Shown here piece after piece: positions 7,092 to 27,587 of a stretch of 64,000 nucleotides of DNA (position 1 is its first letter; each line of letters opens with the position of its first letter). Position numbers and translations under genes: made by a program. The DNA comes from an uncultured Actinomycetes bacterium (GTDB taxonomy: Bacteria; Actinomycetota; UBA4738; HRBIN12). Where the stretch lies: NCBI GenBank assembly GCA_963810915.1, contig CAWEPH010000006.1, positions 939,030-1,003,029 of the forward strand, given 5' to 3'. The notes below the pieces were generated by a model, which was not told where the DNA came from, searched no databases, and saw only the letters and a list, made by a program, of their open reading frames with translations.

Positions 7092-7102
7092 CCGCTGGGC
7101 GA

Positions 7103-7885: not shown

Positions 7886-8090
7886 CGGCGTTCCCGATCA
7901 CGTCGTCGATCACCTGGTCGAAGAACGCGGGCAGCTTCCCCGACGAGTGCGCCCACGCGATCAGCACGACGGCCACGGCGGCCGCCGCCAGGATCACGAG
8001 CGCGTACTCCGCCGTGGTCTGTCCCTCCTCGCGTCGAAGGAGCCCCAGCGCACGGAACCACAGGACGTGCACGAGCACCATCCGATCCAC
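7875..8090 (-). CDS. Flp-pilin-like / DUF4244 small membrane protein (Rv3656c-like)
   Basis: 71-aa ORF with G-TTAEYALVILAAAAVAVVLIAW, the Flp/DUF4244 hallmark (G/xxxxEY followed by a hydrophobic helix). Confidence 0.6.
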   Translation of the reverse strand: MDRMVLVHVLWFRALGLLRREEGQTTAEYALVILAAAAVAVVLIAWAHSSGKLPAFFDQVIDDVIGNAGAA

Positions 8091-8100
8091 CTCCTCTCGC

Positions 8101-8938
8101 TCAACGGATGGACTGCACGGTGGTGAGCAGCACGGGCACCACCGTCAGGAGGAGGAAGGCGGGGAGGACGAGGAACACGAGCGGGAAGAGCATCTTCACC
8201 GGGCGCGGTGCGGGCCCGCTCGGTGATCGCGGCGCGTCGGGTGGCACGAACCGTCGACGGCGAGCTCGGCCGTCGCTTCGGCCAAGGACGAACCCAACGA
8301 CTCCGTGCGGGTGACGGCCGCCACCGCTCGCGTGAAGTCGGGGAGTCCGAGCCGGCCTGCGAGCGCCCGCAGCTCGTCGCGCCAGCGGGCCCCCAGATCG
8401 ACGCTGTCGAGCGTGCGGCGTAGCTCGCCTGCGAGCGGACCCTGCAGGCCGTCGGTGGCTCGCCGCAGGGCGAGGGGTGCTGCGAGTCCCGCCGACGACC
8501 CGGCCGCGAGGAGGTCGAGGAGCTGCGGGATCTCGGCGTCGATCGCCGTCCGTCGTCGTCTGGCGGCCCGAGCCGCCACGAAGCAGCGGCAGCCTGAGGC
8601 CGACGAGACCGAGCACCGGCGCGATCAAGCGGACCCGGCCCGGGTACGAGGAGCCCGAGCAGGACGCCCGCCCCACCCGTCACCAGACGGAGGCCCGCGA
8701 ATCGCGCCGGGGTGAAGGTCCATCCGCTCGTCGCGAGCGCTGCGTCGGCGCGGGATCCGCGAAGCCGCCGGCCCACCCGAGTCCTGCCGAGCCTCGTCAA
8801 CGGATCGGCGGGAGCGACGCCCGCGTCATCGTGGGCAAGGGGAAGCCGTCGCAGGATGGGGACCGTCGAGGCGGTGCATACGGCCAGCGCACACGCAGCG
8901 GCCGCGCCGAAGGCGAGCAGCATGGTGACCTCCGTCAT
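8101..8938 (-). CDS. TadC-like type II secretion system F-domain membrane protein; reading frame broken at least twice
   Basis: Frame X (8938 down to ~8590) holds the N-terminal TM and an internal TM. Frame Y (8579..8196) holds the T2SSF core (IPQLLDLLAAGSSAGL...). Frame Z (down to 8101) holds the C-terminus (PVKMLFPLVFLVLPAFLLLTVVPVLL). Confidence 0.55.
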
Positions 8939-9758
8939 CGGACCTCGAGGAGGTGCCGGATCCAAAGGAACGCCAGCCCCTCCATCGCGAGGCCGACCGT
9001 CACGGCGGCGATGCCCGCGGGCGTGCGGAACGCGCCCTCGATGTCGCTGCGCGAAGTGAGCCAGAGGAAGCCGAAGAACCCGATGGGGAGGAACCCGAGG
9101 ATCGCGCCGGAGAGGCGTGCCTGAGCGGTGAGGGCTCGCACTTCCTGGGCGGCCGCCCGTCGTTCGCGCAGCGTGACACCCACCTGATCGAGGACCATCG
9201 GGAGATCGCCACCGCTTCGGCGATGCAGGTGCAGGACGCCCGCGAGGAGCCTCGCGTCGCCGGTTCCCAAGCGTCGTCGACCCAGCCGTCGAGCGCGTGC
9301 TCCAGCGGGACGCCGACCGCGAGCTCGTCCACCACCCGACGGATGCTCAAGCTCAACGGGGCGGGCGTCTCCTCGGCGGCGTATCCGATCGCCTGCGGGA
9401 GCGACCGGCCCGCCCGCAGTGCCGCGGACAGCGCCCCCACCGCGTCGGCGAGCTGCTCGTCTTCCGTCGCCGATCGCTTGGCAGCCCGCCGCCTGGTGAC
9501 GAGCCGACGCACGAAGAGGGCGGCGGCGGCTCCCAACGCGGCGCCGAGCGGCGCGACGAGCACCCATCCGACCACCGCGCCCGCGGCCACCCACGGGACC
9601 CAGGTCGGCACCGAACGCATCTGCAAGCCGGCACCGAGCGCCGCTACACCCTCGGGCCGGTGCACGCGTTCCAGCAGCGCCGCTCGCCGATGCGCCGCGC
9701 CAGCCCGGCCGCCGAGCCAGACGAGGAGGAACGCGAGGACCCCGACCAGCGCGATCAT
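8935..9758 (-). CDS. TadB-like type II secretion system F-family membrane protein; apparent 1-nt deletion near 9290
   Basis: The N-terminal part is in ORF 9000..9758 (MIALVGVLAFLLVWL...). The C-terminal part is in the frame of ORF 8935..9765 (GDLPMVLDQVGVTLRERRAAAQEVRALTAQARLSGAILGFLPIGFF). Inserting 1 nt at the junction restores the frame. Confidence 0.6.
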
Positions 9759-9761
9759 GCG

Positions 9762-11046
<1,285 letters not shown>

Positions 11047-11251
11047 CGCCGACCTCCGTCCGCGCCGAACCCACGTGTCATCAACGAGGGGAAGCTGCGA
11101 GGGGGAAGCGACGGTCGGTGTTCTGGTGACCGCCGAGGGGAAAGCGAACGATAGCGAGCCCGGCGCGTCGAACCCATCCCCAGCCCGACCGATTCCCGGT
11201 TCTTGTCGGGGGACGATGTCCGAACGTGTCGGGTGAGACGGCCGCGGTTCG

Positions 11252-12910
11252 TTACCGCTCGCCGGGGTCGGTCGGCATGCGTTCGTCCACGATCGCCTGT
11301 GCGCGTTCGCGGCTCTGGGGATGACCGGTGACGGCCTCGAGGAACGGTTCCCGCTCGAGCGCCAGGAGCGTCATCGGCGTCGCAGCCGTGACGGTCGCCG
11401 TTCGCGGCACGTCGCGCAGCAACGCGATCTCACCGATGTGCTCGCCGACGCCGCGGTCGGTCACGTGCGCGCCATCCCGGGTCACCTCGGCCTCGCCCGT
11501 CTCGATGACGTAGAAACGCTCCCCTACCTCCCCCTCGCGGATCAGGACGTCGCCGGCCGCGAGCTCCGTCCGCTTGAGGTTGACGAGGATCCGCTGGATG
11601 GCCGGCGCAGGCAGCGGAGCGAAGATCGGTATGCCGCGTATCAGCTTCAGCATCTCGGCGTCCGGGGCCCTCGCCTCGCGGTCGATCGCTGAGAGCGGGA
11701 CCCAGAGCGCGAGGGCGGAGATCGGAGCTAGCGCACCGACCACGATGAGGGCCGTCCGCACGCCGAACGCCGCCATCAGCGCTGAGGCGCCCAGTGCGCC
11801 GGCCGCCGTCCCCAATGTCCCCAATCCTTCGACGATGCCGAACACGCGCGCCAGGACCTCGTCGGGCGCGATCCGCTGCAGGAGGGTGTTGCCGGCCATC
11901 CACGAGACGCTGCCTCCGGCACCGGCCGCCGCAAAGAGGAGGGGCGCGCTCGCTGCGGACGGAGCCGCGCCGACGACGATGATGGGCGCCCCGAACAGGA
12001 GCGTGCCGCCGGCGAGGGACGGGACCAATCGGCGCCGACCGACCAACGCCACCGTGAGGAGCGCCCCGACCAAGGCACCGACCCCCGCGGCCGAGTTGAG
12101 GAATCCGGCCCACCCCTGACCCTTGTGGAGCAGGTCGATGGCCACGCCGACGTAGATCACGTCGAGGGCTCCCAACAGGAGCATGCTCGCGGCCATCACG
12201 ATCACGAGCAGGCCCGCCCTGCGTTCCTCAGCGAGCACGCGGAAGCCTCCGAACGCCTCGCGTACCACGTCGTGCGCATCCATCGGCTCCTCGGGGCGCA
12301 TCCCGCCGGAGGCCACATCGAGACGCGCGACCAAAAGGGCACCGACGAACACGACCACCGCGAAGAGGGCGAACACCGCGGCCGGTCCGGTCTTCGCGAG
12401 CACCACGCCGGCAACGAACGGTCCGATCACCAGCGAGGCGCTCTCGGCCATGGCCGACACGGAGTTGGCCGCGGTCAGCTCCTTCGGGCTGAGAGCCACG
12501 CTGGGCAGGAGCGCGGACTGGGTGGGTCTCGTGAACGTCATGCTGGCGGCCGCGACGGTCGCGAAGACCAACGTCAGCCCGAACGGCGCGTCCGCGGCCA
12601 GGGCGATCGCGACCACGCCGAGCGCGACCGCCTGCGCGAGGTAGCTCACGAAGAGCACACGGTCGCGCGCGAACCGGTCGCCGGCGAAGGCCCCGAACGG
12701 CGCCACGAGCCCCGCCGGGACCAGCTGGATCGCCGCGGCCAGCCCGGCGGCCGTAGCCCCCCCGCGGTCGTACGCATAGACGAGGATCGCGATCCACGTG
12801 CCGTACTCCGACATGCCGAACCCGAAGAACGCGAGCTCGATCCGTGCCATCCGAGGATCGCGCGCGATGGCGCTCACGGTGCGCACCTGATCCCTCATGC
12901 CGCGCAGCAT
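11252..12910 (-). CDS. MFS transporter fused to a C-terminal cyclic-nucleotide-binding (CAP effector-type) domain
   Basis: About 12 TM helices with an MFS loop motif (GDRFARDRV). The C-terminal ~120 aa carry cNMP-binding motifs (FYVIETGEAEV...GEHIGEIALL...RTATVTAAT). Start may be 12910, 12898 or 12850. Confidence 0.75.
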   Translation of the reverse strand: MLRGMRDQVRTVSAIARDPRMARIELAFFGFGMSEYGTWIAILVYAYDRGGATAAGLAAAIQLVPAGLVAPFGAFAGDRFARDRVLFVSYLAQAVALGVVAIALAADAPFGLTLVFATVAAASMTFTRPTQSALLPSVALSPKELTAANSVSAMAESASLVIGPFVAGVVLAKTGPAAVFALFAVVVFVGALLVARLDVASGGMRPEEPMDAHDVVREAFGGFRVLAEERRAGLLVIVMAASMLLLGALDVIYVGVAIDLLHKGQGWAGFLNSAAGVGALVGALLTVALVGRRRLVPSLAGGTLLFGAPIIVVGAAPSAASAPLLFAAAGAGGSVSWMAGNTLLQRIAPDEVLARVFGIVEGLGTLGTAAGALGASALMAAFGVRTALIVVGALAPISALALWVPLSAIDREARAPDAEMLKLIRGIPIFAPLPAPAIQRILVNLKRTELAAGDVLIREGEVGERFYVIETGEAEVTRDGAHVTDRGVGEHIGEIALLRDVPRTATVTAATPMTLLALEREPFLEAVTGHPQSRERAQAIVDERMPTDPGER

Positions 12911-12959
12911 CGCACCCTCGGGCTCACCCGGTTTGCGGCCCCGAACCCCTGGCCCGAGG

Positions 12960-14342
12960 ATGGGCCCCGTGGAGATCCCGGAGATCCGCTACGCGAAGAC
13001 CCGTGACGGGATCCACATCGCCTATCAGGTGCTCGGCGACGGCCCGGCCGACCTGTTGTTCGTTCCGGGCTTCGCGTCGAACCTGATCTGGAACTGGCAG
13101 CTCCCCTCGTACGCCCACTTCCTGCGGCGACTGGGTTCGTTCTGCCGACTCATCATCGTCGACCGCCGCGGCTGCGGGGTCTCCGACCGGCTCTCACCCG
13201 AGGATCTCCCGTCCCTGGAGGTGATCGCGGACGACCTCGGCGCGGTGCTGGACGCCGTGGCGTCCGAGCGCGCGTCGATGTTCGCGGCGGATGAAGGCGC
13301 GCAGGGCGTGGCGCTCTTCGCAGCGACCCATCCCGAGCGGGTCGAGCGCCTGATCATCTACACGATGGACCCGATGGGCGACTTCCAGCCCTGGGCCGAC
13401 GGCTACAAGTCGCGCGAAGAGCGCGAGGCGTTCCTGGAGGCGTTCATCGTCGAGGTCGTCAAAGGTTGGGGCACGAGGGAGTTCGCGCATTCCGACCCGC
13501 TCGGAGGTCTCGTGATCTGCGGACCTTCCCTAGCCGACGATCCGAACGCGATCGATTGGTACACGGCGTTGTTGCTCCTCTCCACCAGCCCGAGTGGAGC
13601 GGTCGCGTTCCATCGCATGTACTTCGAGACTGACGCCCAGCCGATCCTCGCGTCCATCCGCGTCCCGACGTTGTTGCTCCACCGCGTCGGCGATCTGCTC
13701 GAACCGATCGAAGCGTCGCGCTTCATGGCCGGGCTGATCCCCGGCGCCCGCTTGATCGAACTGGACGGGGACGATCACGTGTGGTTCGCGGGCGACACCG
13801 ACTCCATCGTGGACCCGATCCAGGAGTTCATGACGGGTGCCCGGCCGGCGCACGACCTCGACCGCGTCCTGGCGACCGTGCTGTTCACCGACATCGTCGG
13901 CTCGACCGAGATGGCGGCCAGGCTGGGCGACACGGCATGGAAGGAACTGCTCGCCACGCATGACGAGTGGGCAAAGACGGAGATCGCAAGACATCGAGGG
14001 AACTACGTCCACACGACGGGCGATGGTCTGCTCGCGACCTTCGACGGACCGGCACGAGCGGTGCGATGCGCACAGGCGATCGGTGAGGCGGTTCGGTCGC
14101 TCGGGATCGAGCTCCGGTCGGGTTGCCATACGGGTGAGATCGAGCTCACCGCTGATGACGTGCAGGGTCTCGCCGTGCACATCGGCGCCCGAGTGGCCGC
14201 TGCCGCCGGGCCGGCCCAAGTTCTCGTCTCCTCCACGGTGAAGGATCTCGTGGCCGGATCCGGTCTCAGCTTCGAGGATGCCGGCGTGCACGAGCTGAAG
14301 GGCGTGCCCGACACCTGGCATCTCTATCGGGTTGTCGGCTGA
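12960..14342 (+). CDS. Paralog 1: alpha/beta-hydrolase-fold domain fused to class III nucleotidyl cyclase domain (LipJ/Rv1900c-like)
   Basis: N-domain has hydrolase-fold motifs (FVPGF...IIVDRRGCGVSD...). The cyclase homology domain has [44 protein letters not shown]. The stop overlaps the next start (TGATG). Confidence 0.8.
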   Translation: MGPVEIPEIRYAKTRDGIHIAYQVLGDGPADLLFVPGFASNLIWNWQLPSYAHFLRRLGSFCRLIIVDRRGCGVSDRLSPEDLPSLEVIADDLGAVLDAVASERASMFAADEGAQGVALFAATHPERVERLIIYTMDPMGDFQPWADGYKSREEREAFLEAFIVEVVKGWGTREFAHSDPLGGLVICGPSLADDPNAIDWYTALLLLSTSPSGAVAFHRMYFETDAQPILASIRVPTLLLHRVGDLLEPIEASRFMAGLIPGARLIELDGDDHVWFAGDTDSIVDPIQEFMTGARPAHDLDRVLATVLFTDIVGSTEMAARLGDTAWKELLATHDEWAKTEIARHRGNYVHTTGDGLLATFDGPARAVRCAQAIGEAVRSLGIELRSGCHTGEIELTADDVQGLAVHIGARVAAAAGPAQVLVSSTVKDLVAGSGLSFEDAGVHELKGVPDTWHLYRVVG

Positions 14343-15700
14343 TGGAGACCCCTCGCACGCGGTACGCGAAGACCGTCGACGGGGTCAGCATCGCCTATCA
14401 GGTGCGGGGTGACGGGCCCGTCGATCTCATCTACGCGAGGGGGTGGACCCAGAACCTCGAGATCGAGCTCGAGGGACCGCGGAGCGGCGCCTGGTTCAGT
14501 GGGCTCGCCTCCATCTCGCGTTTGATCCTCTTCGACAAGCGAGGGACGGGCCTCTCGGACCGCACCGCGACGCCCGACCTCGAGATACGCGCCGACGACC
14601 TGCGAGCGGTGCTCGACGCCGCCGGCTCGGACCGCGCTGTCGTGATGGGCGACGCCGACGGTGGCGCCCTCGCGGTGTTCTTCGCGGCGACCCACCCGGA
14701 GCGCGTGCAGGCCCTGATCCTCAATGGGGCGTACGCGCGCGCCGCATGGGCCCCCGACTACCCGATCGGGCAGAAGGAGGACGACTTCCTGGCAGACCGA
14801 GAAGACACGGCCAGACGATGGGGCACGATCGAGTTCGCGCAGGAATGGGTCGATCGACAGGCGCCCTCGCTCTCGAACGACACCGAATACGTCGAATGGT
14901 TCGCGAAGACCTTGCGGCACGGGGCCTCTCCCGCGGCCGAGCTCGAGTTCGAAGACATGTGGCGCGAGATCGACGTCCGCTCCGTGCTCGGAAGCGTGCA
15001 GGCGCCAACGCTCGTGGTCGCCACGCCGGGTGCGGGCGATCTGGTCAAGGGGACGGGGGACGTGGCCCGCGAGCGTTACCTCGTCGAGCGGATCCCCGGC
15101 GCGAAGTACGTGGAGCTCCCTGGCCGCGACCTCATCATCGAGCACACGAACCCAACCCTGCTCCTGGATGAGATCGAACGGTTCATCCGATCGGTGAGCG
15201 CGGAGGAGCGCGAGATCGATCGGGTCCTGGCGACCGTCATGTTCACCGACATCGTGGGCTCGACCGAACGAGCGTCCACGTTGGGCGACGCAGCATGGAG
15301 AGATCTGCTGGAGCGCCACCATCGAACGGTGCGAGCGATGATCGGCCGCTATCGGGGACAGGAGATCAACACGGCGGGCGACGGGTTCCTGGCCACGTTC
15401 GACGGCCCCGCTCGAGGGGTGAGATGCGCGCAAGCGATCGCCGAAGCGGTACATCCCCTTGGCCTCGAGGTCCGAGCCGGCCTGCACACGGGCGAGATCG
15501 ACGTCACCGGCGACGATGTTCAGGGTATCGCCGTGCATATCGGTGCCCGTGTCGGGGCCCTGGCGGGTCCGTCCGAGGTCTTGGTCTCGCAGACGGTCAA
15601 GGACCTCGTCGCCGGGAGCGGGCTCACGTTTGAGGAGGCCGGCGAGCACGAGCTCAAGGGCGTCCCTGACCGCTGGCACCTCTACCGGGTGGTGAGCTGA
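14342..15700 (+). CDS. Paralog 2: hydrolase-fold + class III cyclase fusion
   Basis: 452 aa, intact. METPRTRYAKTVDG...FTDIVGSTERA...[26 protein letters not shown]...RAGLHTGEI...[10 protein letters not shown]. Confidence 0.85.
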   Translation: METPRTRYAKTVDGVSIAYQVRGDGPVDLIYARGWTQNLEIELEGPRSGAWFSGLASISRLILFDKRGTGLSDRTATPDLEIRADDLRAVLDAAGSDRAVVMGDADGGALAVFFAATHPERVQALILNGAYARAAWAPDYPIGQKEDDFLADREDTARRWGTIEFAQEWVDRQAPSLSNDTEYVEWFAKTLRHGASPAAELEFEDMWREIDVRSVLGSVQAPTLVVATPGAGDLVKGTGDVARERYLVERIPGAKYVELPGRDLIIEHTNPTLLLDEIERFIRSVSAEEREIDRVLATVMFTDIVGSTERASTLGDAAWRDLLERHHRTVRAMIGRYRGQEINTAGDGFLATFDGPARGVRCAQAIAEAVHPLGLEVRAGLHTGEIDVTGDDVQGIAVHIGARVGALAGPSEVLVSQTVKDLVAGSGLTFEEAGEHELKGVPDRWHLYRVVS

Positions 15701-15701
15701 C

Positions 15702-17060
15702 TTGGAGACCTACCGGACGCGGTACGCGATGACCGTCGACGGGGTGAACATCGCCTACCAGGTACGAGGGAACGGACCGGTCGATCTCCTCTGGGTCGGG
15801 GGGTTCACCGCGAACCTCGAGGTTGAATACGACGGCCCAAGGAACAACGCCTCCTTCTACGCGGAGCTCGCCGCGTTCACCCGGCTGATCTTGTTCGACA
15901 AGCGCGGGACCGGGTTGTCGGATCGCACGCAGACCCCCGACCTCGAGAAGCGTGTCGACGATATGCGGGCGGTGTTGGACGCGGTCGGCTCCGAGCGAGC
16001 GGTGGTGCTTGGCGCCGCGGACGGCGCGGCCCTGGCGGCGTTCTTCGCGGCGACACATCCCGAACGGGTTCAGGCGCTGATCCTCAAGTCTCCCAGCGCG
16101 CGCACCGCATGGGCCCCCGACTACCCGCAGGGGATGAAGGAGGAGGACTACCTGGCGGAACGGGAGGATATGGCGCGACGATGGGGCTCGATCGAGCTGG
16201 CGCAGGAATGGGTGTCACGTGAGGCCCCCTCGCTCGCGCACGACACCGAATACGTCGAGTGGTTCGCGAAGTCGATGCGACATGGTGCATCCCCGGGGTC
16301 CGCCGTCGCGTTCGAGGACGTTTACTACGCGATCGACGTGCGGTCGATCCTCGGGAGCGTCCAGGCGCCCACCCTCGTGCTCGCCATCCCAGGAGCGGAC
16401 GAGCAGTTCGAGACCGTAGGCGCTGGACAGGACCGAGACCTCGCCGATGGGATCCCCGGCGCGAAGTACGTCGAGTTGTTTGGGCGAGATCTCGTCATCA
16501 TCGCCACGAACCCGCGAGTGCTTCTCGACGAGATCCACGGATTCATCAACTCGGTGAGCGCCGAGGAGGCCGAGTTCGATCGCGTACTCGCGACCGTGCT
16601 CTTCACCGACATCGTCGGCTCGACCGAGCGCGCGTCGGCGTTGGGAGACGGGGCGTGGAAGGACCTACTCCGACGCCACCACGAGGTGGTTCGCGCCATG
16701 ATCGGCCGTTACCGCGGCAAGGAGATCGGCACGGCGGGCGATGGGTTCCTCGCGACCTTCGACGGCCCCGCTCGAGGCGTGCGCTGCGCGCAGGCGATCG
16801 CCGAGGCCGTGCAACCCCTAGGTCTGGAGATCCGAGCCGGCCTGCACACCGGCGAGATCGAGGTGACGGGCGACGATGTCCAGGGCATCGCCGTCCACAC
16901 GGGCGCCCGCGTCGGTGCCCTCGCGGGACCGTCCGAAATCCTGGTCTCCCAAACCGTCAAGGATCTCGTGGCCGGATCGGGTCTCGCCTTCGAGGACGCC
17001 GGCGAGCACGAGCTGAAGGGCGTGCCCGACCGCTGGCGCCTCTATCGGGTGGTGGGCTGA
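15702..17060 (+). CDS. Paralog 3: hydrolase-fold + class III cyclase fusion
   Basis: 452 aa, intact, TTG start 1 nt after the previous stop. More than 70% identical to paralogs 2 and 4 by eye. Confidence 0.85.
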   Translation: METYRTRYAMTVDGVNIAYQVRGNGPVDLLWVGGFTANLEVEYDGPRNNASFYAELAAFTRLILFDKRGTGLSDRTQTPDLEKRVDDMRAVLDAVGSERAVVLGAADGAALAAFFAATHPERVQALILKSPSARTAWAPDYPQGMKEEDYLAEREDMARRWGSIELAQEWVSREAPSLAHDTEYVEWFAKSMRHGASPGSAVAFEDVYYAIDVRSILGSVQAPTLVLAIPGADEQFETVGAGQDRDLADGIPGAKYVELFGRDLVIIATNPRVLLDEIHGFINSVSAEEAEFDRVLATVLFTDIVGSTERASALGDGAWKDLLRRHHEVVRAMIGRYRGKEIGTAGDGFLATFDGPARGVRCAQAIAEAVQPLGLEIRAGLHTGEIEVTGDDVQGIAVHTGARVGALAGPSEILVSQTVKDLVAGSGLAFEDAGEHELKGVPDRWRLYRVVG

Positions 17061-17061
17061 G

Positions 17062-18405
17062 GTGGACATCCCTCGCACCCGGTATGCGAAGACCGTCGAC
17101 GGGGTCCACATCGCGTATCAGGTACGGGGTGACGGGCCTGTCGATCTCATCTACGCGATGGGATACACGGCGAACTTCGAGGTGGAGCTCGAAGGACCTC
17201 GGAGCGGCATGTACTTCGATGGGCTTGCCTCGCTCGCCCGACTGATCCTGTTCGACAAGCGTGGGACCGGGTTGTCGGACCGAACCCAGACACCCGACCT
17301 CGAGATGCGCGCGGACGACCTGCGAGCGGTGCTGGACGCGGTCGGATCCGAACGAGCAGTGGTGCTCGGTGCTGCCGACGCCGGCGCCCTGGCGGCCTTC
17401 TTCGCGGCCGCCCATCCGGAGCGGGTGCGGGCCCTGATCCTCAACGGGGCCTACGCGCGGAAGGCGTGGGCTCCCGACTACCCGAACGGGCAGACGGAGG
17501 AGGACTACCGCGAAGGTCGAGAAGACATGGCACGACGCTGGGGGACGATGGAGCTGGCACAGGACTGGGTCGATGCCGAGGCGCCGTCGCTCTCGCACGA
17601 CGCGGAGTACCTGGAATGGTTCACCAAGACCATGCGCTACGGCGCTTCCCCTGCGGCCGCCGTCGAGTTCGAGGACGCGATCTACGCCATCGATGTACGG
17701 GCGATCCTCGGGACGGTGCAGGCGCCGACCCTCGTGCTGGCGCAGCCCGGTTCTCTGGACACCGCCGGCGGGCGCGAACGCGATCTTGCAGACCGGATCC
17801 CCGGCGCGAAGTACGTCGAGCTTCCGGGGCGGGACTTCATCATGGAGCACACCAACCCCGCCCCCCTGCTGGATGCGATCGGAGGGTTCATCCGATCGGT
17901 GAGTGCTGAGGAGCGCGAGATCGACCGGGTCCTGGCGACCGTCCTGTTCACCGACATCGTGGGTTCGACGGAGCGGGCGGCCCAACTCGGGGATGGAGCG
18001 TGGAGGGCCTTGCTGGAGCGGCACCACGAGGTGGTGCGGGCGATGATCGGGCGGTACCGGGGCACCGAGGTCAGCACGGCGGGCGACGGGTTCCTCGCGA
18101 CGTTCGACGGACCCGCCCGAGGGGTTCGCTGCGCGCAGGCGATCGCTGAAGCGGTGCAGCCGTTGGGGCTCGAGATCCGAGCCGGTTTGCACACGGGTGA
18201 GGTGGAGACGATCGACGGCTCGGTAGGCGGCATCGCCGTCCACACCGGCGCGCGCGTGGGTGCCCTCGCAGCACCGTCCGAGGTCCTCGTCTCGCAGACC
18301 GTCAAGGATCCGGTGGCCGGCTCCGGCCTCTCGTTCGAGGATGCCGGTGAGCACGAGCTGAAGGGTGTCCCCGACCGGTGGCGCCTGTACCGGGTGGTGA
18401 GCTGA
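17062..18405 (+). CDS. Paralog 4: hydrolase-fold + class III cyclase fusion
   Basis: 447 aa, intact, GTG start. Same motif set. The stop overlaps the next ATG (TGATG). Confidence 0.85.
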   Translation: MDIPRTRYAKTVDGVHIAYQVRGDGPVDLIYAMGYTANFEVELEGPRSGMYFDGLASLARLILFDKRGTGLSDRTQTPDLEMRADDLRAVLDAVGSERAVVLGAADAGALAAFFAAAHPERVRALILNGAYARKAWAPDYPNGQTEEDYREGREDMARRWGTMELAQDWVDAEAPSLSHDAEYLEWFTKTMRYGASPAAAVEFEDAIYAIDVRAILGTVQAPTLVLAQPGSLDTAGGRERDLADRIPGAKYVELPGRDFIMEHTNPAPLLDAIGGFIRSVSAEEREIDRVLATVLFTDIVGSTERAAQLGDGAWRALLERHHEVVRAMIGRYRGTEVSTAGDGFLATFDGPARGVRCAQAIAEAVQPLGLEIRAGLHTGEVETIDGSVGGIAVHTGARVGALAAPSEVLVSQTVKDPVAGSGLSFEDAGEHELKGVPDRWRLYRVVS

Positions 18406-19760
18406 TGGAGTCCCCTGAGACCAGGTACGCCCTGACCTCGGACGGCGTCTACGTCGCGTACCAGATGCTCGGCGAGGGCCCCATCGACCTAGTGTTCGCC
18501 TTCGGCTGGCTCAACAACGTCGATTCCGTCTGGTCGATCCCGGAGATCGCATCGTTCTATCGACGCCTGGCCGCCTTCTCTCGCTTGATCATCTTCGACC
18601 GGCGCGGCACGGGGTTGTCGGACCGCATCACCGAGGGTGAGGCTGCAACCTTCGAAGCCGGCATGGACGACATCCGAGCAGTGATGGATGCGGCAGGATC
18701 CGAACGGGCCCTGCAGGTCGGGTTCCAAGACGGCGGGATGCTCTGCGCGCTGTTCGCGGCATCCTTCCCGGAGCGAGCCACCGGCCTCGTGATCATCGGG
18801 AGCTCGCCGGTAACCATCTGGGCACCGGACGCTCCCTGGGGATGGACGGAACAGGAGTATCAGCCATACCTCGATGCCTTGGTGCAAGGCTGGGGCACAC
18901 CCGGATGGACCGCGCGGCACATGGAATCGATGGCACCTTCGTTCCGAAGCAGCGACCGGGCGGCCGTGGAGCGCTTCGCCAAGCATTTCCGCGCGTGTGC
19001 GAGTCCGGGTACGGCGCTGGCGATCGAACGGATGCTCATGCACAGCGACGTGCGAGGCGTGCTCCCGACGATCCAGGTGCCGACGCTCGTGATCCACAAC
19101 GTCGATGATGCGGTCGAAGAGGTCAGAGCAGCGCGCTACACGGCTGAAGAGATCCCCGGGGCCAAGCTCGTCGAGCTGCCGTTCACGGAGCATGCGCCCT
19201 TCTACGAGAGCGCGAACCCGACCCTTGAAGCTGTGGAGACGTTCGCCTCGCAGGTTCGAGCGGAGCAGGCCGAGTTCGACCGCGTGCTCGCCACCGTGCT
19301 GTTCACCGACATCGTGGACTCCACCGCCCAAAGCGCGGCCATGGGCGACCACCTGTGGCGGGACGTGCAGCAACGACACGACCGCATCGTGCGGGCGAAC
19401 CTCGCACGCTACCGAGGGAGAGAGATCAAGACGATGGGCGACGGATTCCTCGCCACGTTCGACGGACCCGCACGCGGCGTGCGGTGCGCCGAGTCGATAG
19501 CGGCGGCGATACTGCCGCTCGGGATCGAGATCCGCGCCGGGCTGCATACGGGCGAGGTGGCGTTCGAAGGCGACGATGTCAACGGCCTGGGGGTGGCGAT
19601 CGGGGCGCGCGTCGGAGCCCTCGCTAGAGCGTCCGAGGTGCTGGTCTCCCAAACCGTCAAGGACCTCGTGGCCGGCTCCGGACTCACGTTCGAGGACGCC
19701 GGTGAGCACGAGCTGAAGGGCGTGCCCGACCGCTGGCGCCTCTACCGGGTGGTGGGCTGA
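18405..19760 (+). CDS. Paralog 5: hydrolase-fold + class III cyclase fusion (more divergent; Lys retained in KTMGDGF)
   Basis: MESPETRYALTSDG...FTDIVDSTA...[29 protein letters not shown]...RAGLHTGEV...GLGVAIGARV. Confidence 0.8.
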   Translation: MESPETRYALTSDGVYVAYQMLGEGPIDLVFAFGWLNNVDSVWSIPEIASFYRRLAAFSRLIIFDRRGTGLSDRITEGEAATFEAGMDDIRAVMDAAGSERALQVGFQDGGMLCALFAASFPERATGLVIIGSSPVTIWAPDAPWGWTEQEYQPYLDALVQGWGTPGWTARHMESMAPSFRSSDRAAVERFAKHFRACASPGTALAIERMLMHSDVRGVLPTIQVPTLVIHNVDDAVEEVRAARYTAEEIPGAKLVELPFTEHAPFYESANPTLEAVETFASQVRAEQAEFDRVLATVLFTDIVDSTAQSAAMGDHLWRDVQQRHDRIVRANLARYRGREIKTMGDGFLATFDGPARGVRCAESIAAAILPLGIEIRAGLHTGEVAFEGDDVNGLGVAIGARVGALARASEVLVSQTVKDLVAGSGLTFEDAGEHELKGVPDRWRLYRVVG

Positions 19761-19761
19761 G

Positions 19762-21211
19762 GTGAACACGCCTCGCACCCAGTACGTAAAGACCGACGAC
19801 GAGGTGTATATCGCCTACCAGGTCGTCGGCGACGGTCCAGTCGACCTGGTCTGGCAGTTCGACTACTTCGGGAACGTCGACGCCGTGTGGGAGCACCCGC
19901 TGTGGGCGCGCTTCCTCGGCGGCTTCGCGGAATTCTCTCGGCTGATCCTCCTTGATCGTCGAGGGACAGGGCAGTCGAGCCGCAACGTACCGCCGTCCGA
20001 TCTTGAGACCCGCGCCAGGGACCTGCGGACGGTCCTCGATGCATTGGGATCCGACGTCGTGGTGGCGGCTGGCCACGGTCAAGGAGGAGCCGCGAGCGCC
20101 CTCGCAACGTACCGCCGTCCGATCTTGAGACCCGCGCGAGTGACCTGCGGACGGTCCTCGATGCGTTGGGGTCCGACGTCGTGGTGGCGGCCGGCCACGG
20201 CCAGGGGGGAGCAGCGAGCGCCCTGTTCGCCGCTACGGAGCCGGATCGGGTGCGCTCGTTCGTGTGGGATGAACCGGTAGCGCGGACGTTGTGGGCACCC
20301 GACTATCCGTGGGGCGTGAGCATCGCATATCTCGAGCGACGCACGTCGGCTGACCCAGGACCACTGGGGAACGGATGCCTTCTTCGCGATGTTGGCGGCG
20401 CTTGATGACTATCCCGTGCCGACGGAGGTGACGATCGGGTACGGGAAGCTCTGCCGATCCACCGCCACCCCGGACGTCGCGCTCGAGATCGATCGCATCT
20501 GGAACGAGACCGACATCCGCGGGGCACTTCCGTCCGTGCGCGCGCCCGCACTCCTCACCGAGCTGGATTCCGGTGATCCGGGCCAGATCAACTACATCGC
20601 GTCGCTGATGCCGGACGCACGGGTGGTTCGGATCCCCGGCGAAGATGGATACCAGCCCGAGGTGATCGACCGCACTCACGATGCGATCCGGGCCTTCCTC
20701 GGGCTGGCGACGGCACCACCTGGCGCGGACCGGATCCTGGCAACGGTGCTGTTCACCGACATCGTCGATTCCACAGGACGAGCGGCCGAGCTCGGTGACT
20801 CCGCCTGGAGGCAGGTCCTGGCGGCGCACGACGAGCGAGCTCGCGACCGAGATCGAGCGGTATGACGGACGCTATGTCCATACGACCGGCGATGGGCTGC
20901 TCGCCACGTTCGATGGACCCGCGCGGGCGGTGCGTTGCGCGCGTGCGATCGCGGACGCGGTCCGCTCGCTCGGTCTCGAGATCCGCGCGGGCTGTCACAC
21001 CGGCGAGATCGAGCTGGTCGGCGACGACGTGCAGGGCCTCGCCGTGCACATCGGCGCGCGCGTGGCGGCGCTGGCCGGAACCCCCGACGTGCTCGTTTCC
21101 TCGACGGTGAAGGATCTCGTCGCCGGCTCCGGCCTCACCTTCGAGGATGCCGGCGAGCACGAACTGAAGGGCGTGCCCGACCGCTGGCACCTGTATCGGG
21201 TGACGGGCTGA
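19762..21211 (+). pseudogene. Paralog 6: hydrolase-cyclase fusion disrupted by a ~122-bp internal tandem duplication plus at least two further frameshifts
   Basis: Homologous segments are spread over three frames (ORFs 19762..20280, 20166..20405, 20389..20865, 20681..21211). The duplicated peptide GSDVVVAAGHGQGGAASAL is encoded twice. Confidence 0.7.
19981..20224 (+). repeat. Direct tandem duplication, 2 x ~122 bp (about 93-95% identical), inside paralog 6
   Basis: The run gcaacgtaccgccgtccgatcttgagacccgcgc...gacctgcggacggtcctcgatgc.ttggg.tccgacgtcgtggtggcggc.ggccacgg... occurs at 19982 and again at 20104. The unit length is not a multiple of 3. Confidence 0.85.
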
Positions 21212-22549
21212 TGGAACGTCCCGAGGTCCAGTTCGCGAGGGCGTCCGACGGCGCGTACCTCGCCTATCAGACCTTCGGGAGCGGTCCTATCGACATCTTC
21301 TGGCAGGAAGAGTTCCTCGCCTTGGTCGACCAGTTCTGGGACTCCCCACCGGAGCGCGCGTTGCACGAGGGATTGGCCGAGTACGGCCGCGTGACCATCT
21401 ACGATCGGAGAGGCACGGGCTCTCGAGCCGCAACGTGGCGCCCGGCAACCTCGAGACCCAGGTCGCGGACACCCTCGCCGTCCTCGATGCTCAAGGCATC
21501 GAGCGCGCGGTCTTCGGTGGGATCCTCGAATGTGGAGCCGCGAACGCGCTGCTCGCCGCCACCTACCCGGACCGCGTCCAGGCGCTCCTGTGGATGACGC
21601 CTGTTCCTCGGACGACCACGACGTCGGACTACCCATGGGGAGTCGGACCCGAGTACGTCGAACGCGAGCGGAGATCCTCGAACGCTGGGGGACGTTACGA
21701 TGGGCTCGCGAGTTCGTCGAGATGAACTCGATGGTGATGGGCGGACCGTGGGCAAGCGGAGGAGTACATCCGGTTCATCACGAGAGCGAGCCGCAGGACC
21801 TGCACGCCCGACGTCGCGAAGGAGCTCAGCCGCATCTGGTACGACACCGACATCCGGGGCATCCTCCCGACGATCCAGGCACCGATGCTGCTGGTGACCT
21901 CCGAGGACGACTGACGACCTGGAATTAGCAGGCTCCGTCGCCGAGCGAGTTCCTCTCGCCGAGATCAGAACGTTCCCGGGTCCGTACCTCGAGATCGAGG
22001 ACTTCGCCTCGATCCATTCTGCGATCAGCCGATTCATCGGCGCCGAGCGGCCGCCTCTGGGCCTCGATTCCGTGCTCGCGACGGTGCTGTTCACGGACAT
22101 CGTCGGGTCGACCGAGCGCGGGGCCGCACTGGGGGACTGCGGCATGGCAGGAGATCCACGAACGCCACGACAGGATCGTGCGGGGCGAGCTCGAACGCCA
22201 TCGTGGCCGTGAGATCAAGCGCACGGGCGACGGCTTCCTCGCGACGTTCGACGGACCTGCACGCGGTGTGCACTGCGCCCGGGCGATCGCCGAGGAGATG
22301 CAGACCCTCGGGATCGAGATCCGCGCAGGGCTCCACACCGGGGAGATCGAACTCGACGCCGACGACATCGCGGGGCTCACGGTTTCGATCGGCGCCCGCG
22401 TGAGCGCGAAGGCCGGTCCGTCCGAGGTCCTGATCTCCCAGACCGTGAAGGATCTGATCGCAGGTTCGGGCCTCTCGTTCGAGGATGCGGGCGAGCACGA
22501 GCTGAAGGGCGTCCCGGACGTGTGGCACCTCTATCGGGTGGTCGACTGA
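21211..22549 (+). pseudogene. Paralog 7: hydrolase-cyclase fusion with multiple frameshifts
   Basis: Recognisable pieces sit in at least four frames: MERPEVQFARASDGAYLAYQ..., ...AVLDAQGIERAVFGG..., [21 protein letters not shown], and [26 protein letters not shown]...HLYRVVD. Confidence 0.65.
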
Positions 22550-23854
22550 GTGGACACCCCGGAGACGCGGTACGCGAAGGCGCCCGACGGGGTCTCGATC
22601 GCGTACCACGTCGTGGGCGACGGACCCATCGACCTCATCTGGCTCCACGCCTTCATGGGAGGGCTGGAGGTCATCTGGGAACACGAGGCGATGCGGTCGC
22701 TCACGACCAAGCTCACATCCTTCGCCCGCGTGATCAGGCACGACATGCGCGCGACGGGCCTCTCGAGCCGCGCGGCCGAGCTCCCCGACCTCGAGACGCA
22801 GGTGCAGGATGCGGCGGCGGTGCTCGACGCGGTTGGCTCTCGTTCGACCGTCATCTTGGGAGCGGGCCCCGGAGCGCACGCCGCGTCGCTGTTCGCGGCC
22901 ACCTACCCCGATCGCACCCGGGCGCTCGTCCTCTGGGACTTCTACGCGTGGGCCGGCAACGTGTTCCGCCCCACCGACCTCGACCTCCTGAGCCGGACCT
23001 GGGGCACCGAGGCGTCGGCCGCCGCCGCGATGGCCCAGGTGGCCCCATCGATGATCGACGACCGCGAGTTCCTCCGCTGGTACGCCAAGGTCCAGCGCCA
23101 CTTCGTGCCCCCCGACGTCGCCGCCGAGCTCATCCAGAGCGCGATCGACACCGACATCCGGCCCGTCCTACCCGTGATCCACGTCCCCACCCTGGTGTTG
23201 GCCCGAGGATGGTCCAACCACGAGAAGGATCGCGACGTGGCCCAGACGATCGAGGGGTCGACGTTCCTCCTGCTCCCGGGCTCGGACCGGGCGACCTTCG
23301 CCGGCAATCAGGACGACCTCGTCGGCGCGGTCAGGGACTTCGTCGGAGGTGGTCCAGCCGCCAGGTCGGGGCAGACCCTTCTGCGAGCCGTGTTGTTCAC
23401 CGACATCGTGGGGTCAACCGAGCATCTCGCGCGGGTCGGAGATCAGGCCTGGCGGGAGCTGATCGTCGCGCACGACGATCGCTCCCGACGCGCGATCGAA
23501 CGACACGGGGGCCACATCGTCAAGAGCACGGGAGACGGCGTGCTCGCGACGTTCGAGGGACCCGCGCAGGCCGTGCGTGGGGCGCAGGAGGTCGCGGCAT
23601 CGCTCGAGGAGCTGGGACTCGAGATCCGCGCGGGGGTCCACGTAGGCGAGATCGAGACCATCGGCGACGACGTCACGGGCGTGAGCGTGAACGTCGCGGC
23701 GCGGGTCGCGGCGATGGCGGGCGCCTCGGAGGTCCTCGTCTCCTCGACGGTGAAGGACCTGACCCCGGGATCGGGCCTCACCTTCGAAGACGCGGGGGAG
23801 CACGAGCTGAAGGGCGTCCCCGACACGTGGCACCTCTACCGGGTGATCCTGTGA
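22550..23854 (+). CDS. Paralog 8: hydrolase-fold + class III cyclase fusion (most divergent; canonical Asn retained in VNVAARV)
   Basis: 434 aa, intact, GTG start adjacent to the paralog 7 stop. FTDIVGSTEH, KSTGDGVLATFEGPAQAVRGAQ, RAGVHVGEIE, GVSVNVAARVAAMAG. Confidence 0.8.
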   Translation: MDTPETRYAKAPDGVSIAYHVVGDGPIDLIWLHAFMGGLEVIWEHEAMRSLTTKLTSFARVIRHDMRATGLSSRAAELPDLETQVQDAAAVLDAVGSRSTVILGAGPGAHAASLFAATYPDRTRALVLWDFYAWAGNVFRPTDLDLLSRTWGTEASAAAAMAQVAPSMIDDREFLRWYAKVQRHFVPPDVAAELIQSAIDTDIRPVLPVIHVPTLVLARGWSNHEKDRDVAQTIEGSTFLLLPGSDRATFAGNQDDLVGAVRDFVGGGPAARSGQTLLRAVLFTDIVGSTEHLARVGDQAWRELIVAHDDRSRRAIERHGGHIVKSTGDGVLATFEGPAQAVRGAQEVAASLEELGLEIRAGVHVGEIETIGDDVTGVSVNVAARVAAMAGASEVLVSSTVKDLTPGSGLTFEDAGEHELKGVPDTWHLYRVIL

Positions 23855-23897: not shown

Positions 23898-24758
23898 CTA
23901 TCCGAGCCCTCGCCCCACGTATTCGGCTCCGTACCGGCCCTCCATCACACGCCTGACGACCTCCGCGACGAGTACGAGGACGAGCGACGTGAAGAGGATG
24001 AGCGACGCCACCGCAACCAGCTCCGGGAGCTGACTCGGGATCCGCAACTGGGCGAAGAGGTAGACGGGCCAGGTGGCCGACGTTCCGGCGAGGAACGATG
24101 CGATCGCGAACTCGTCGAAGGAGAGCGTGAACGAGATCAGGAACGCCGAGATGAGGGCGGGGAGCAGCAGCGGGAAGGTGACGCGGCGGAACGTCTGCCA
24201 TGTCCCGGCCCCGAGGTCGCGGGCCGCCTCCTCGAGCGACAGGCTCAGGCGCCCGAGGAGCGGCATGATCGTGAGGATCACGTACGGGAGCGACACGACG
24301 ACGTGGCCGATCACGACGGCGTGCAGACCCAGGCCGATGTAGACGCCGGCCACCCGGGTGAGCACCTTGTCCACGAGGGTGAACAGCAGCAACAGCGTGA
24401 TCCCGAAGACGAGGTACGGGATCACGAGCGGCGAGAAGAACAGCGCCGACGCCGCGGACTTCCCGGCGAACCTCCTGCGGACCAGGGCGAACGAGGCCAT
24501 CACGCCCAGCGCAACGGCGATGCAGCTCGAGGCCGTGGCGACGATCAGGCTCCTCTTGAGCGCCCCGATCAGCAAGGCGTTGTGGAAGAACTGCGCGTAC
24601 CAGTGCGTCGTGAATCCCTGGAGGGGGAACGACACATCCCCCTTGTCGAACGAGAAGATCGCGAGGATCACGATCGGCGCATAGAGGAACACCACGAGGA
24701 GCGCGAAGAAGACCTGCAACAACCTCAGCCCCAGCTTGGATGCGGCGGCCTCCATCAG
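23898..24758 (-). CDS. ABC transporter permease (PotC/PotI-like)
   Basis: 6 TM helices with the EAA-type motif region (LSLEEAARDLGAGTWQTFRRVTFPLLLPAL). Start chosen at MEAAASKLG. Confidence 0.7.
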   Translation of the reverse strand: MMEAAASKLGLRLLQVFFALLVVFLYAPIVILAIFSFDKGDVSFPLQGFTTHWYAQFFHNALLIGALKRSLIVATASSCIAVALGVMASFALVRRRFAGKSAASALFFSPLVIPYLVFGITLLLLFTLVDKVLTRVAGVYIGLGLHAVVIGHVVVSLPYVILTIMPLLGRLSLSLEEAARDLGAGTWQTFRRVTFPLLLPALISAFLISFTLSFDEFAIASFLAGTSATWPVYLFAQLRIPSQLPELVAVASLILFTSLVLVLVAEVVRRVMEGRYGAEYVGRGLG

Positions 24759-25663
24759 CCGCCCACACTCCCCACCCGCACGTAGCGCCCGAAGAGCGCC
24801 ATCAGCAACGCGACGACGATCAGCAGGAACATCGCCAGCACCGAGCCCGTCTGCCAGTCGAGACCTCGTGTGAACAGGTCTTGGATCGCGTTGCCGTACA
24901 TGTATCCACTGGTCCCACCCACCAGGAGCGGGGTCACGAACTCCCCGATCGTCGGGACGAACACGAAGACGAACGCGGCGATGACCCCCGGCATGCTCAG
25001 TCGGAGCGTGACCCGCCAGAACGCCCGCAACCGGCTGGCGCCCAGGTCTCCCGCCGCCTCCAACAGGCTCGGATCGAGGCTGTCGAGCGAGACGAAGATC
25101 GGCAGCGCCACGAACGGGATCCACACGTACGCGAGCACCAAGGTGACGGAGAACTGGCTGTACAGCAGCCACGTGACCGGGTGGTCAGGGCTCCGCAGAT
25201 GCAGGGAGAACAGCAAGCTGTTGATCACCCCGGAGTCACCCAGGATCACCTTCCACGCGAGGACACGCAGGAGGTAACTCGTGAGGAACGGCGCGATGAT
25301 CAGCAGGAGCAACACGTACTTCCGCTTCTTCACGCAGAGCGCCAAGAAGTACCCGATCGGGTACGAGAGCACGACGACGATGAAGGAGACCGTGAGCGAG
25401 ATCCGGAGCGACTTCCAGAAGAGCCGGAGGTAGACGGACCCACCAAGGAAGCGACGCCAGGCGTCCAACGACACGACGCCGGTGTCGGTCGGGAAGACCT
25501 TGACGGCCCCGATGCTGTACACCGCCACGTAGACGACCGGCGCGATGAAGAACAGCAGCAGCCAGAGCAGCGGGCCGGAGAGCAGGCCGGCGGTGGCCCC
25601 GCGCTCCCGTCCCCGGCTCTGCTTGGCGGACTCAGCCTCCACCGAACCGCTCCCCATCCGCAC
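24755..25663 (-). CDS. ABC transporter permease (PotB/PotH-like)
   Basis: 6 TM helices with EAA-type loop (LLEAAGDLGASRLRAFWRVTLRLSMPGV). 4-nt overlap with the downstream permease. Confidence 0.7.
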   Translation of the reverse strand: MRMGSGSVEAESAKQSRGRERGATAGLLSGPLLWLLLFFIAPVVYVAVYSIGAVKVFPTDTGVVSLDAWRRFLGGSVYLRLFWKSLRISLTVSFIVVVLSYPIGYFLALCVKKRKYVLLLLIIAPFLTSYLLRVLAWKVILGDSGVINSLLFSLHLRSPDHPVTWLLYSQFSVTLVLAYVWIPFVALPIFVSLDSLDPSLLEAAGDLGASRLRAFWRVTLRLSMPGVIAAFVFVFVPTIGEFVTPLLVGGTSGYMYGNAIQDLFTRGLDWQTGSVLAMFLLIVVALLMALFGRYVRVGSVGG

Positions 25664-25696
25664 ACGGCCCGCCGCGCCGAGCGTGAAGGGCTCTCA

Positions 25697-26866
25697 CTAT
25701 GCCGACGACACCTCGGTCCAGTACTGCGAGTACACGGAGCGACGGGAGATCCAGGACTCGATGTGCGCCTTGGGCTCCTCGAGGGCGGAGGGATCATCCA
25801 GGCTCAGCGCCTGGACCATGGCCGCGGGAAGCACCGACACATCGACCTTGGTGTTCGCGTGACCGTAGTAGTAGTAGCCCTCCAGGAACTGCGCTGCCTT
25901 CGTGCTCGACCAGGAGTCGACGTAGGCGTGCGCGTGCCGGTAGTTCTTGGTGCTCGACGAGAGCCCCATCCCACACGACCACCAGATCCGGCCCTCTTTC
26001 GGCTGCATGTAGACGACGTCCATCCCGGCGGTGGTCGCGTAGCCGACCGTGTCGGGCCACGCGTACCCGATCCAGATATCCCCCTTCTTGAACGCCGTCC
26101 ACAGGTCGTAGGACTGGTCCCACATGAAGCTGACGAGGTGTTTCTTGGAGATCAGGAAGTCACGCATCTGCCCGAGCTCATCGTCCGTCATGGTCCACGG
26201 ATCGCTGACGCCGTGGTAGTAGCCGGCGATGACGAGCATCTCCAGCGTATTGATCCACGAGATCCTCCCGGCGTAGCGATCGTCCCAGAGCAGGCTCCAC
26301 GAATCCTCCGCGGGCTGGACCTTGTCCGCCCGGTACAGGGGGGCGATGAACCCCCAGTCCTCGACGATGAAGTACTGCTTCCCGTCGATCTGGCCGGCGG
26401 TCTCGAGCTTCGGGCTCATCTGCGCGTAGTTCGAGATGAGCGAGGTGTCCCATGGCTGGACGGCGCCGAGCTCCACGTAGTCCTTGAAGCGATACGCGCA
26501 GGGATGGACAACGTCGAAATCCACGCTGCCCGCCACCGTCTTCGTGTACCCGTCGTCGTCGTTCGGGAAGAGGATGAACTTCGGTGTGTCCCCGGTCGCC
26601 TGGGCGTAGGCCGCCCAGAGGTTCTGCTTCTCCTTGTCGGGGTAGTACTCCCCGCCCCCGTACCCCGCCCAGTCGAACACCGCGAGGTTGCCGGGCTCGC
26701 TCGTGATCGCCGGATGGGTGGAAGCCGAGCCGCTGACCGCGGAGCCGGACGTCGTCGCCTTCTTGCAGGCCGCCAGGACGCCCGCGCCCGCCGCCACGCC
26801 CGCGTAGCGCAGGAGGTCTCTCCGTCCGAACTTCCGCGCGATGAACCGATCCAGCTCGTCAGTCAT
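25697..26866 (-). CDS. ABC transporter substrate-binding protein (PotD/PotF polyamine-binding family-like) with Tat signal and lipobox
   Basis: N-terminal RRDLLRYAGVAAGAGVLAAC (twin-arginine plus lipobox Cys). Aromatic-rich periplasmic binding fold. The ORF 5' extension was rejected. Confidence 0.65.
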   Translation of the reverse strand: MTDELDRFIARKFGRRDLLRYAGVAAGAGVLAACKKATTSGSAVSGSASTHPAITSEPGNLAVFDWAGYGGGEYYPDKEKQNLWAAYAQATGDTPKFILFPNDDDGYTKTVAGSVDFDVVHPCAYRFKDYVELGAVQPWDTSLISNYAQMSPKLETAGQIDGKQYFIVEDWGFIAPLYRADKVQPAEDSWSLLWDDRYAGRISWINTLEMLVIAGYYHGVSDPWTMTDDELGQMRDFLISKKHLVSFMWDQSYDLWTAFKKGDIWIGYAWPDTVGYATTAGMDVVYMQPKEGRIWWSCGMGLSSSTKNYRHAHAYVDSWSSTKAAQFLEGYYYYGHANTKVDVSVLPAAMVQALSLDDPSALEEPKAHIESWISRRSVYSQYWTEVSSA

Positions 26867-26969
26867 CTTCCCCCCCAAGCGCTCCCAACGGACACGCGTA
26901 TGATGCCCCCGACTTCGCCGCCTGGATAGTGCCTGGCGGGAAAAAGGTGCGCCTGAGGGGACCGAGGTC

Positions 26970-27587
26970 GTGCAGGGTTGCGTCAGATGGGCCGCGTTCG
27001 CGATCGTCCTGCTGACCGCGTGCTCCATGGGCGACCCTCAGCCTTCGGCGCCGCCGAGCGGGTCGCCATCGAGTGCCGATCACGTACCCATCGCGCACGT
27101 CCCGACCCTCCCCGCCACCGCCATGCACGGGTACGTCACGCGCCTGACGCCGATCGACGCCGCGGGCCTGGCCGGCGAAGCGCTGAACGCGCCCGCGCTC
27201 GCGTCGGTCCTTGCCGGCGCAGGATTCGAGGGAGGTGTGGAGCGGAGGTTCACGGCGCGAGCGAGGGCCCTGACGGAGGTGGTGGCGCGCGTCCTGAAGT
27301 TCGGCACCCCGGAGGGCGCCACCGCGTACGTCGCTTGGTTCGCGTCGCACGGCACCGACCTCCTCGGATCTCGAGCGCAGCCAGCCGATCCCCCCGACGT
27401 CCCCGGCGCAGTCGCGTTCCGACACGGCGTGAGCGGCTGCTGCACGAAAGACACGTTCCAGTACATCGCCGCGTGGACCCGGGGTCCCTATGCGATGACG
27501 CTTCTCGTCGGCGGCCCGGACGCGGGGCACGGATCCGCGTCACCGCTGGCCGCCGAACTCGATGCCCGTGTGCGGAAGGATGGATGA
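26970..27587 (+). CDS. Hypothetical lipoprotein
   Basis: Signal peptide plus lipobox (AIVLLTAC). No recognisable family. Confidence 0.45.
   Translation: MQGCVRWAAFAIVLLTACSMGDPQPSAPPSGSPSSADHVPIAHVPTLPATAMHGYVTRLTPIDAAGLAGEALNAPALASVLAGAGFEGGVERRFTARARALTEVVARVLKFGTPEGATAYVAWFASHGTDLLGSRAQPADPPDVPGAVAFRHGVSGCCTKDTFQYIAAWTRGPYAMTLLVGGPDAGHGSASPLAAELDARVRKDG

Follow-up and report, generated by a model that had tools for sequence, protein, structure and literature searches.

Frameshifts in two copies of a LipJ-like cyclase array probably reflect a mixed-strain consensus rather than gene decay

Two adjacent genes in a tandem array of eight hydrolase-cyclase paralogues, copies 6 and 7, are disrupted in the window, as we call the whole 64,000-nucleotide stretch of DNA that was analysed. 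From the comparison with related contigs we consider it likely that both are intact genes and that their lesions are an artefact of consensus building and assembly from mixed strains, not gene decay. In the explanation that we favour, reads from at least two co-occurring strains, with alleles of copies 6 and 7 differing by about 4-12%, would have been merged during long-read metagenome assembly and polishing, leaving a corrupted consensus. Taken at face value, the sequence would lead to the annotation of two pseudogenes, which would then be cited as an example of birth-and-death evolution in a cAMP-signalling array.

The array and the relatives compared

The window has a GC content of about 69%. 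On its plus strand, from about 12.9 to 23.9 kb, eight LipJ/Rv1900c-like hydrolase-cyclase genes follow each other head-to-tail. The genes p1 (12897/12969-14342), p2 (14342-15700), p3 (15702-17060), p4 (17062-18405) and p5 (18405-19760) are intact open reading frames. As assembled, copy 6 (19762-21211) is frameshifted and copy 7 (21211-22549) contains five frameshifts. The last gene, p8 or copy 8 (22550-23854), is again intact and encodes 434 amino acids. A Pfam search assigned to the array proteins an N-terminal alpha/beta-hydrolase domain (Abhydrolase_1, PF00561), followed at the C-terminus by a class III cyclase domain (Guanylate_cyc, PF00211). The cyclase domain of p2 matched the structure of Rv1900c/LipJ from M. 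tuberculosis (PDB 1YBT/1YBU) with E=2.6e-55, and the two-domain architecture of a hydrolase and a class III adenylyl cyclase, as seen by Pfam, is common to Rv1900c and the array genes. Judged by their sequences, the genes of the array are LipJ/Rv1900c-like hydrolase-cyclases with a predicted adenylyl cyclase activity.

Unlike Rv1900c, the genes in this uncultured soil actinomycete form eight tandem copies beside a cNMP-binding MFS transporter. The transporter gene (11252-12910, minus strand) adjoins the upstream end of the array and is divergent from it. Its product has a MFS_1 domain (1.9e-27 in Pfam) and a C-terminal cNMP_binding domain (1.1e-17), and is 100% identical in amino acids to its orthologue in the relative L001.

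L001 (ENA metagenome contig ERZ25039602 contig_12166) and L002 (ERZ25039502 contig_93275) were found by an exact-protein look-up of p2, and L002 carries the A-type haplotype. Cluster and further contig look-ups led to L003 (contig 93276) and L004 (contig 93274), from the assembly that also holds L002; both have the B-type haplotype and contain p4-p5. The A-type and the B-type haplotype therefore occur together in one assembly, ERZ25039502. L165, with B-like alleles, is a contig from an independent JGI project, and L005 is a sister-species MAG (MFD02159.bin.1.80) with about 85% nucleotide identity that came from a genome scan. Between 11250 and 16650, the window differs from L001 and L002 by 0-1 mismatches in every 300 bp.

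The eight paralogues share 41-78% amino acid identity, and their number differs between the strains. The genes p4-p5 are absent from L001, L002 and L165, and copies 6 and 7 directly follow p3 in L001 and L002. L003 has an additional array copy upstream of the MFS gene, and p8 is absent from L001. The array is dynamic, since its copy number differs between strains, and the real biology at this locus is a strain-variable array of 5-8 LipJ-like cyclase genes beside a cNMP-binding MFS transporter. A BLAST extension into p4 had raised the idea that the fourth gene of L001 and L002 is a p4/p6 hybrid formed by unequal crossover. This was rejected because in a windowed alignment the gene proved to be orthologous to copy 6 along its entire length.

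Lesions and selection in copies 6 and 7

In copy 6, the earlier note had described a direct repeat of 2 x about 122 bp at 19981-20224 with a unit length that is not a multiple of three. Tandem Repeats Finder returned the same span with a period of 122, 2.0 copies, 92% matches and a score of 425, and this was the sole long-period repeat in the window. The first unit lies at 19981-20102 and the second at 20103-20224 of the plus strand, and they differ from each other at 9 of 122 positions. When tblastn with the intact paralogues and frameshift-aware protein-to-DNA alignment were applied to copy 6, the frame followed the path 1, 3, 1, 2. Beside the duplication, copy 6 has two more single-base changes, in agreement with the at least two further frame changes that had been claimed. 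With the same approach, copy 7, which had been seen as broken over several frames, was indeed found to contain five single-base frame changes.

The exact positions of the lesions were set by alignment to intact orthologues, and all are given for the plus strand. Copy 6 has an additional A at 20339 and an additional G at 20849. In copy 7, one base is missing at 21415/16 and one at 21669/70, and a G at 21758, an A at 21910 and a T at 22138 are additional. Copies 6 and 7 together thus contain eight lesions, the 122-bp duplication and seven single-base indels, and every one of them disrupts the frame. The lesions which the earlier note had counted as about seven indels in 2.8 kb are real, but the aligned total is eight. 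When copies 6 and 7 were aligned to the intact orthologues, neither an in-frame indel nor a nonsense substitution was observed.

Seven of the eight lesions are private to the window. The only shared one is the inserted G at 20849, which is also found in L003, and none of the eight is present in L001, L002, L165 or L005. The 122-bp duplication is absent from all five other haplotypes that were aligned. Intact orthologues of copy 6 with 441 amino acids were found in L002, L165 and L005 and among the JGI proteins P0012-14. For copy 7, intact orthologues of 445 amino acids were found in L001, L002, L003 and L165, and the frame is also open in L005. L001 departs from the intact state only by a private one-base deletion in a homopolymer, from G6 to G5. 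Homopolymer slippage was rejected as the cause of the indels in the window, where the longest run at any of them has only 2-3 bases.

When the eight lesions were undone, clean open reading frames were obtained with 441 codons for copy 6 and 445 codons for copy 7. Copy 6 was repaired by dropping the bases at 20339 and 20849 together with one of the two 122-bp units, and copy 7 by adding two bases and removing three. The repaired reading frames had 95-97% amino acid identity to their closest intact orthologues, and the repaired copy 7 had 87% identity to the divergent L002 allele.

Selection was analysed by dN/dS according to Nei-Gojobori after removal of the indel columns. The window copy 6 gave a dN/dS of 0.10 against L002 and 0.11 against L003, and the window copy 7 gave 0.11 against L003 and 0.21 against L002. 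When the intact genes of L002 and L003 were compared with each other, the values were 0.08 for copy 6 and 0.18 for copy 7. Relaxed selection on the window copies 6 and 7 was not seen, with 0.10-0.21 compared to 0.08-0.18 between intact genes. Third codon positions held 65-75% of the differences between the window and the orthologues (36 of 48 and 64 of 91, for example), and neither non-synonymous nor private substitutions were in excess in copies 6 and 7. We conclude that eight frame-breaking indels without neutral substitutions do not look like a decaying gene.

Strain alleles at the lesions

The single-base indels were then compared with the alleles of the relatives. At 20339, the inserted A is the L003 allele and the C that follows is the allele of L165 and L002, so that both states of a CGA/CGC site stand side by side (CGA+C). 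At 20849, the inserted G is the L002 allele (GAG) and the C before it that of L165 (CAG), which gives the pattern C+G. The G at 21758 (C+G) and the A at 21910 (A+C) each equal the L002 allele at the adjoining site, where the window has a C. The T at 22138 (GAC+T) equals the allele of L165 and L005 (GAT) at the adjoining site, where the window has GAC. In all five insertions, the inserted base is the allele of another haplotype at the immediately adjoining polymorphic site.

The test for adjoining alleles was based on the alignment of three population haplotypes, L002, L003 and L165. When insertions were simulated at random positions of this alignment, 11.8% of them reproduced such a neighbouring allele; at 0.118 per insertion, five of five corresponds to about 2e-5. 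With two haplotypes, as in a previous form of the test, the value was 0.089 per site. A strict test for a common super- or subsequence within +/-4-6 nt did not hold at most sites, where nearby SNPs break the relation.

Both deletions are also located at polymorphic sites (p about 0.02). At 21415/16 the window reads GGCA-CGGG-CTC and has neither the T seen in haplotype A (GGCATCGGGCTC) nor the compensating A seen in haplotype B (GGCACGGGACTC). The base that is missing at 21669/70 is an A in L003, L004 and L165 and a G in L002 and L005.

When a pile-up is mixed, a consensus caller writes the two alleles of a SNP one behind the other or leaves both out. We know of no mutational process that would write both or neither. 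In the preferred explanation, the +1 insertions would arise where the consensus emits the two SNP alleles one after another, and the -1 deletions where it emits neither allele. The insertion at 20849 that the window has in common with L003 may be the same artefact, with both haplotypes present in the sample of L003, or may be a real inherited frameshift.

The strain alleles were also recognised in the 122-bp duplication. The second unit is an A-type allele with 0/122 mismatches to L002 and 7/122 to L003, and the first unit is a B-type allele with 2/122 mismatches to L003 and 9/122 to L002. The left flank of the first unit is B-like as well (10 mismatches versus 22). Since the second unit equals L002 and the first is close to L003, the nine differences between the units are differences between strain alleles. 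An old duplication whose units diverged afterwards was rejected because these differences are allelic between the haplotypes. The mosaic, for which roughly 320 sites distinguish A from B, extends over a larger part of the window. As far as about 16.65 kb the sequence is identical to A, and it then becomes B-like over p4-p5 and the beginning (5' part) of copy 6. Within copies 6 and 7, it is identical to A in the second unit and at 21204-21477, and otherwise B-like. We suggest that at the duplication the path of the contig might have left the B-type haplotype and continued on the A-type one with an offset of 122 bp, by an assembler mechanism that is hypothetical; one unit of each type would thereby have come to stand in tandem.

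The duplication, and possibly the mosaic, could instead be a real scar of recombination between A and B, and only the single-base indels would then be polishing errors. A-like and B-like blocks alternate along the window, and blocks with 0% divergence sit within flanks of 1-2% divergence, as would fit a recombining population. However, homologous recombination does not make a 122-bp duplication that is out of register, no microhomology was found in the sequence at the unit boundaries, and the duplication is seen in 0/5 other haplotypes. A haplotype switch in the assembly path gives the same mosaic and needs no additional event. We therefore regard a recombination origin of the duplication as unlikely.

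Pilus genes, gene decay and the assembly

Insertions of the same type were observed about 10 kb upstream of copies 6 and 7. When the intact tad/T2SS proteins of L001 were used in tblastn, four pilus genes on the minus strand (7332-10378), encoding Tad, two T2SSF proteins and the T2SSE ATPase, were found to be broken. Each of the proteins matched the window in 2-3 frames with 93-100% amino acid identity. Alignment to the relatives located nine private +1 insertions, at 7332, 8199, 8258, 8580, 8630, 9275, 9281, 9936 and 10378. L001 and L002, which are from different samples, agree at every insertion site that both cover; the site 10378 is covered by L001 and L003 only. At 9936 and 10378, the sites that L003 covers, the inserted base is the L003 allele. 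The indel density in copies 6 and 7 had been described as exceeding that of the flanking copies. This holds for p1-p5 and p8, which are intact, but the nine insertions at 7332-10378 show that copies 6 and 7 are not unique in the window. These pilus genes were located with the proteins of the relatives after a scan of the whole window for frameshifts by GC3 frame-plot and ORF tiling had proved too noisy and was replaced.

In the 5.4 kb stretch at 11250-16650, where the strains are identical, no indels were found. Other regions are polymorphic and yet free of indels, namely p8, with 19-63 differences per 858 bp, and 4333-7332; the strain-specific genes p4-p5 are also free of indels. The error process is thus patchy and not fully explained.

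With these data we considered whether copies 6 and 7 are real and very recent pseudogenes, which became dispensable after the expansion of the array and gained the duplication and seven frameshifts. The lesions affect only two of the eight copies and leave the neighbours intact, the copy number of the array varies between strains, and the insertion at 20849 is common to L003, all of which would fit such a decay. Eight diverged tandem paralogues and a strain-variable copy number are also features of birth-and-death arrays. In contrast to such arrays with resident pseudogenes, selection is unrelaxed here, the lesions follow strain alleles and the orthologues are intact in the relatives. A dN/dS of 0.10-0.21 without any nonsense codon argues against decay, and eight indels with essentially no neutral substitutions would be an implausible mutation spectrum. 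Bacterial pseudogenes have a bias towards deletions, whereas the genic one-base changes in the window comprise 14 insertions and 2 deletions. Further, all five inserted bases copy the alternative allele of the neighbouring SNP (p about 2e-5), the second unit of the duplication is identical to the allele of a different strain, and like insertions break the conserved tad genes. A recent pseudogenisation is for these reasons quite improbable, and the intact orthologues, the purifying selection and the match of the lesions to alleles of other strains speak against the birth-and-death reading that the earlier note had offered. Its alternative, a mis-assembled or collapsed repeat, is supported as far as mis-assembly or consensus error is concerned; what appears to be collapsed, however, are strain haplotypes and not a paralogous repeat.

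It is highly improbable that all lesions are real scars of heteroduplex processing during recombination between strains, with both parental alleles kept side by side at mismatched sites and the 122-bp junction out of register, which inactivated two cyclase paralogues and several pilus genes at the same time; if true, recombination in soil actinomycetes would leave a mutational signature that has not been described.

A mixed-strain consensus is also consistent with the probable origin of the contig. In NCBI and ENA, the proteins of the window are found on a single contig of 1,064,317 bp. The sister contigs have names of the Flye style ('contig_N'), and the nearest genome matches are Nanopore MAGs of Microflora Danica ('MFD...bin'). 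In that project, Nanopore reads were assembled by Flye with --meta --nano-hq and polished by one round of Medaka (PMC12313526). We infer that the contig of the window comes from the same project, made by Flye and Medaka from Nanopore reads, and that its own sample holds both haplotypes. Polishing errors of metaFlye in the presence of strain heterogeneity are documented (PMC12424758).

The window resembles long-read assemblies by metaFlye and Medaka with collapsed strains in several respects. Its indels are grouped at places where strains that occur together have different sequences, and its consensus is pieced together from several haplotypes. Contigs end within the same variable array, and the sister assemblies have indels of their own that are not shared. 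In contrast, the tandem signature of both alleles and the out-of-register junction of 122 bp were not found described in that literature and were deduced here from the sequences. For the annotation of long-read MAGs, this calls for caution: clustered frameshifts in which the inserted base is the adjacent allele of another strain are a recognisable fingerprint of mixed-strain polishing, and related contigs suffice to look for it when no reads are at hand.

Similar changes were seen in the relatives. L004 has an additional T at 21415 and thereby combines the A and B states of this site. In L003, several +1 insertions lie in T2SSE, and a private one is located about 25 bp upstream of 20849. The contigs 93274, 93275 and 93276, which are from one sample, all end inside the array.

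Copy number of the cyclase array

The array of LipJ-like hydrolase-cyclase genes adjoins an MFS transporter gene with a cNMP-binding domain (11252-23854 of the window). Its copy number differs among close relatives, namely the window, the metagenome contigs L001 (ERZ25039602) and L002 (ERZ25039502), the B-type contig L003, the sister-species MAG L005 and the JGI contig L165, which has B-like alleles. In L002 and L165, copy 6 directly follows the third gene p3, and in the window and L003 the genes p4-p5 are additionally present. L003 has a further copy of 447 aa inserted upstream of the MFS gene, and L005 carries one extra copy after p8. The array of L001 consists of five copies and is without p8. 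Past copy 7 on its downstream side, L001 contains an FtsX-family gene and other genes (L001 15383-21359) that the window lacks; the difference is due either to structural variation or to a chimeric junction formed at the array.

Beyond these relatives, scans of genomes and metagenome contigs recovered more than 500 relatives of the hydrolase-cyclase fusion with 45-59% identity in soil Actinomycetota MAGs. They were found in Gaiellales, Thermoleophilia and others, and one genome often encoded several of them. The family is thus widely distributed, and multiple copies are frequent.

Haplotype blocks around the array

When the window was compared with L001 and L002, which come from two other assemblies, a block of 5.4 kb (11250-16650) showed at most one mismatch per 300 bp, whereas its flank at 4333-11250 diverged by 1-2%. 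Within the 3' end of p3, at about 16.65-16.95 kb, the window changes to a different haplotype. The near-identical block and the switch reflect either a recent recombination event among strains of the population or an assembler that moved from one haplotype to another.

Genes flanking the array

On the minus strand at 7332-10378, the Tad, T2SSE and two T2SSF pilus genes are each broken into 2-3 frames. These splits are caused by nine single-base insertions that are private to the window, and all four genes are unbroken in both L001 and L002. The T2SSE gene of L002 holds an insertion of about 1.5 kb (L002 4270-5764, between 10104 and 10105 of the window), which may be a mobile element; its small ORFs of 122 and 198 aa had no match in Pfam.

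On the 3' side of the array, a 729-aa ORF on the plus strand (24740-26929) had no Pfam match. It lies over three minus-strand ORFs (23898-25172, 24755-25663 and 25697-27028), and the GC3 signal of coding sequence falls on these minus-strand ORFs. The counterpart of the first of them in the B-type contig L004 matched BPD_transp_1, an ABC permease domain. The plus-strand ORF is probably spurious.
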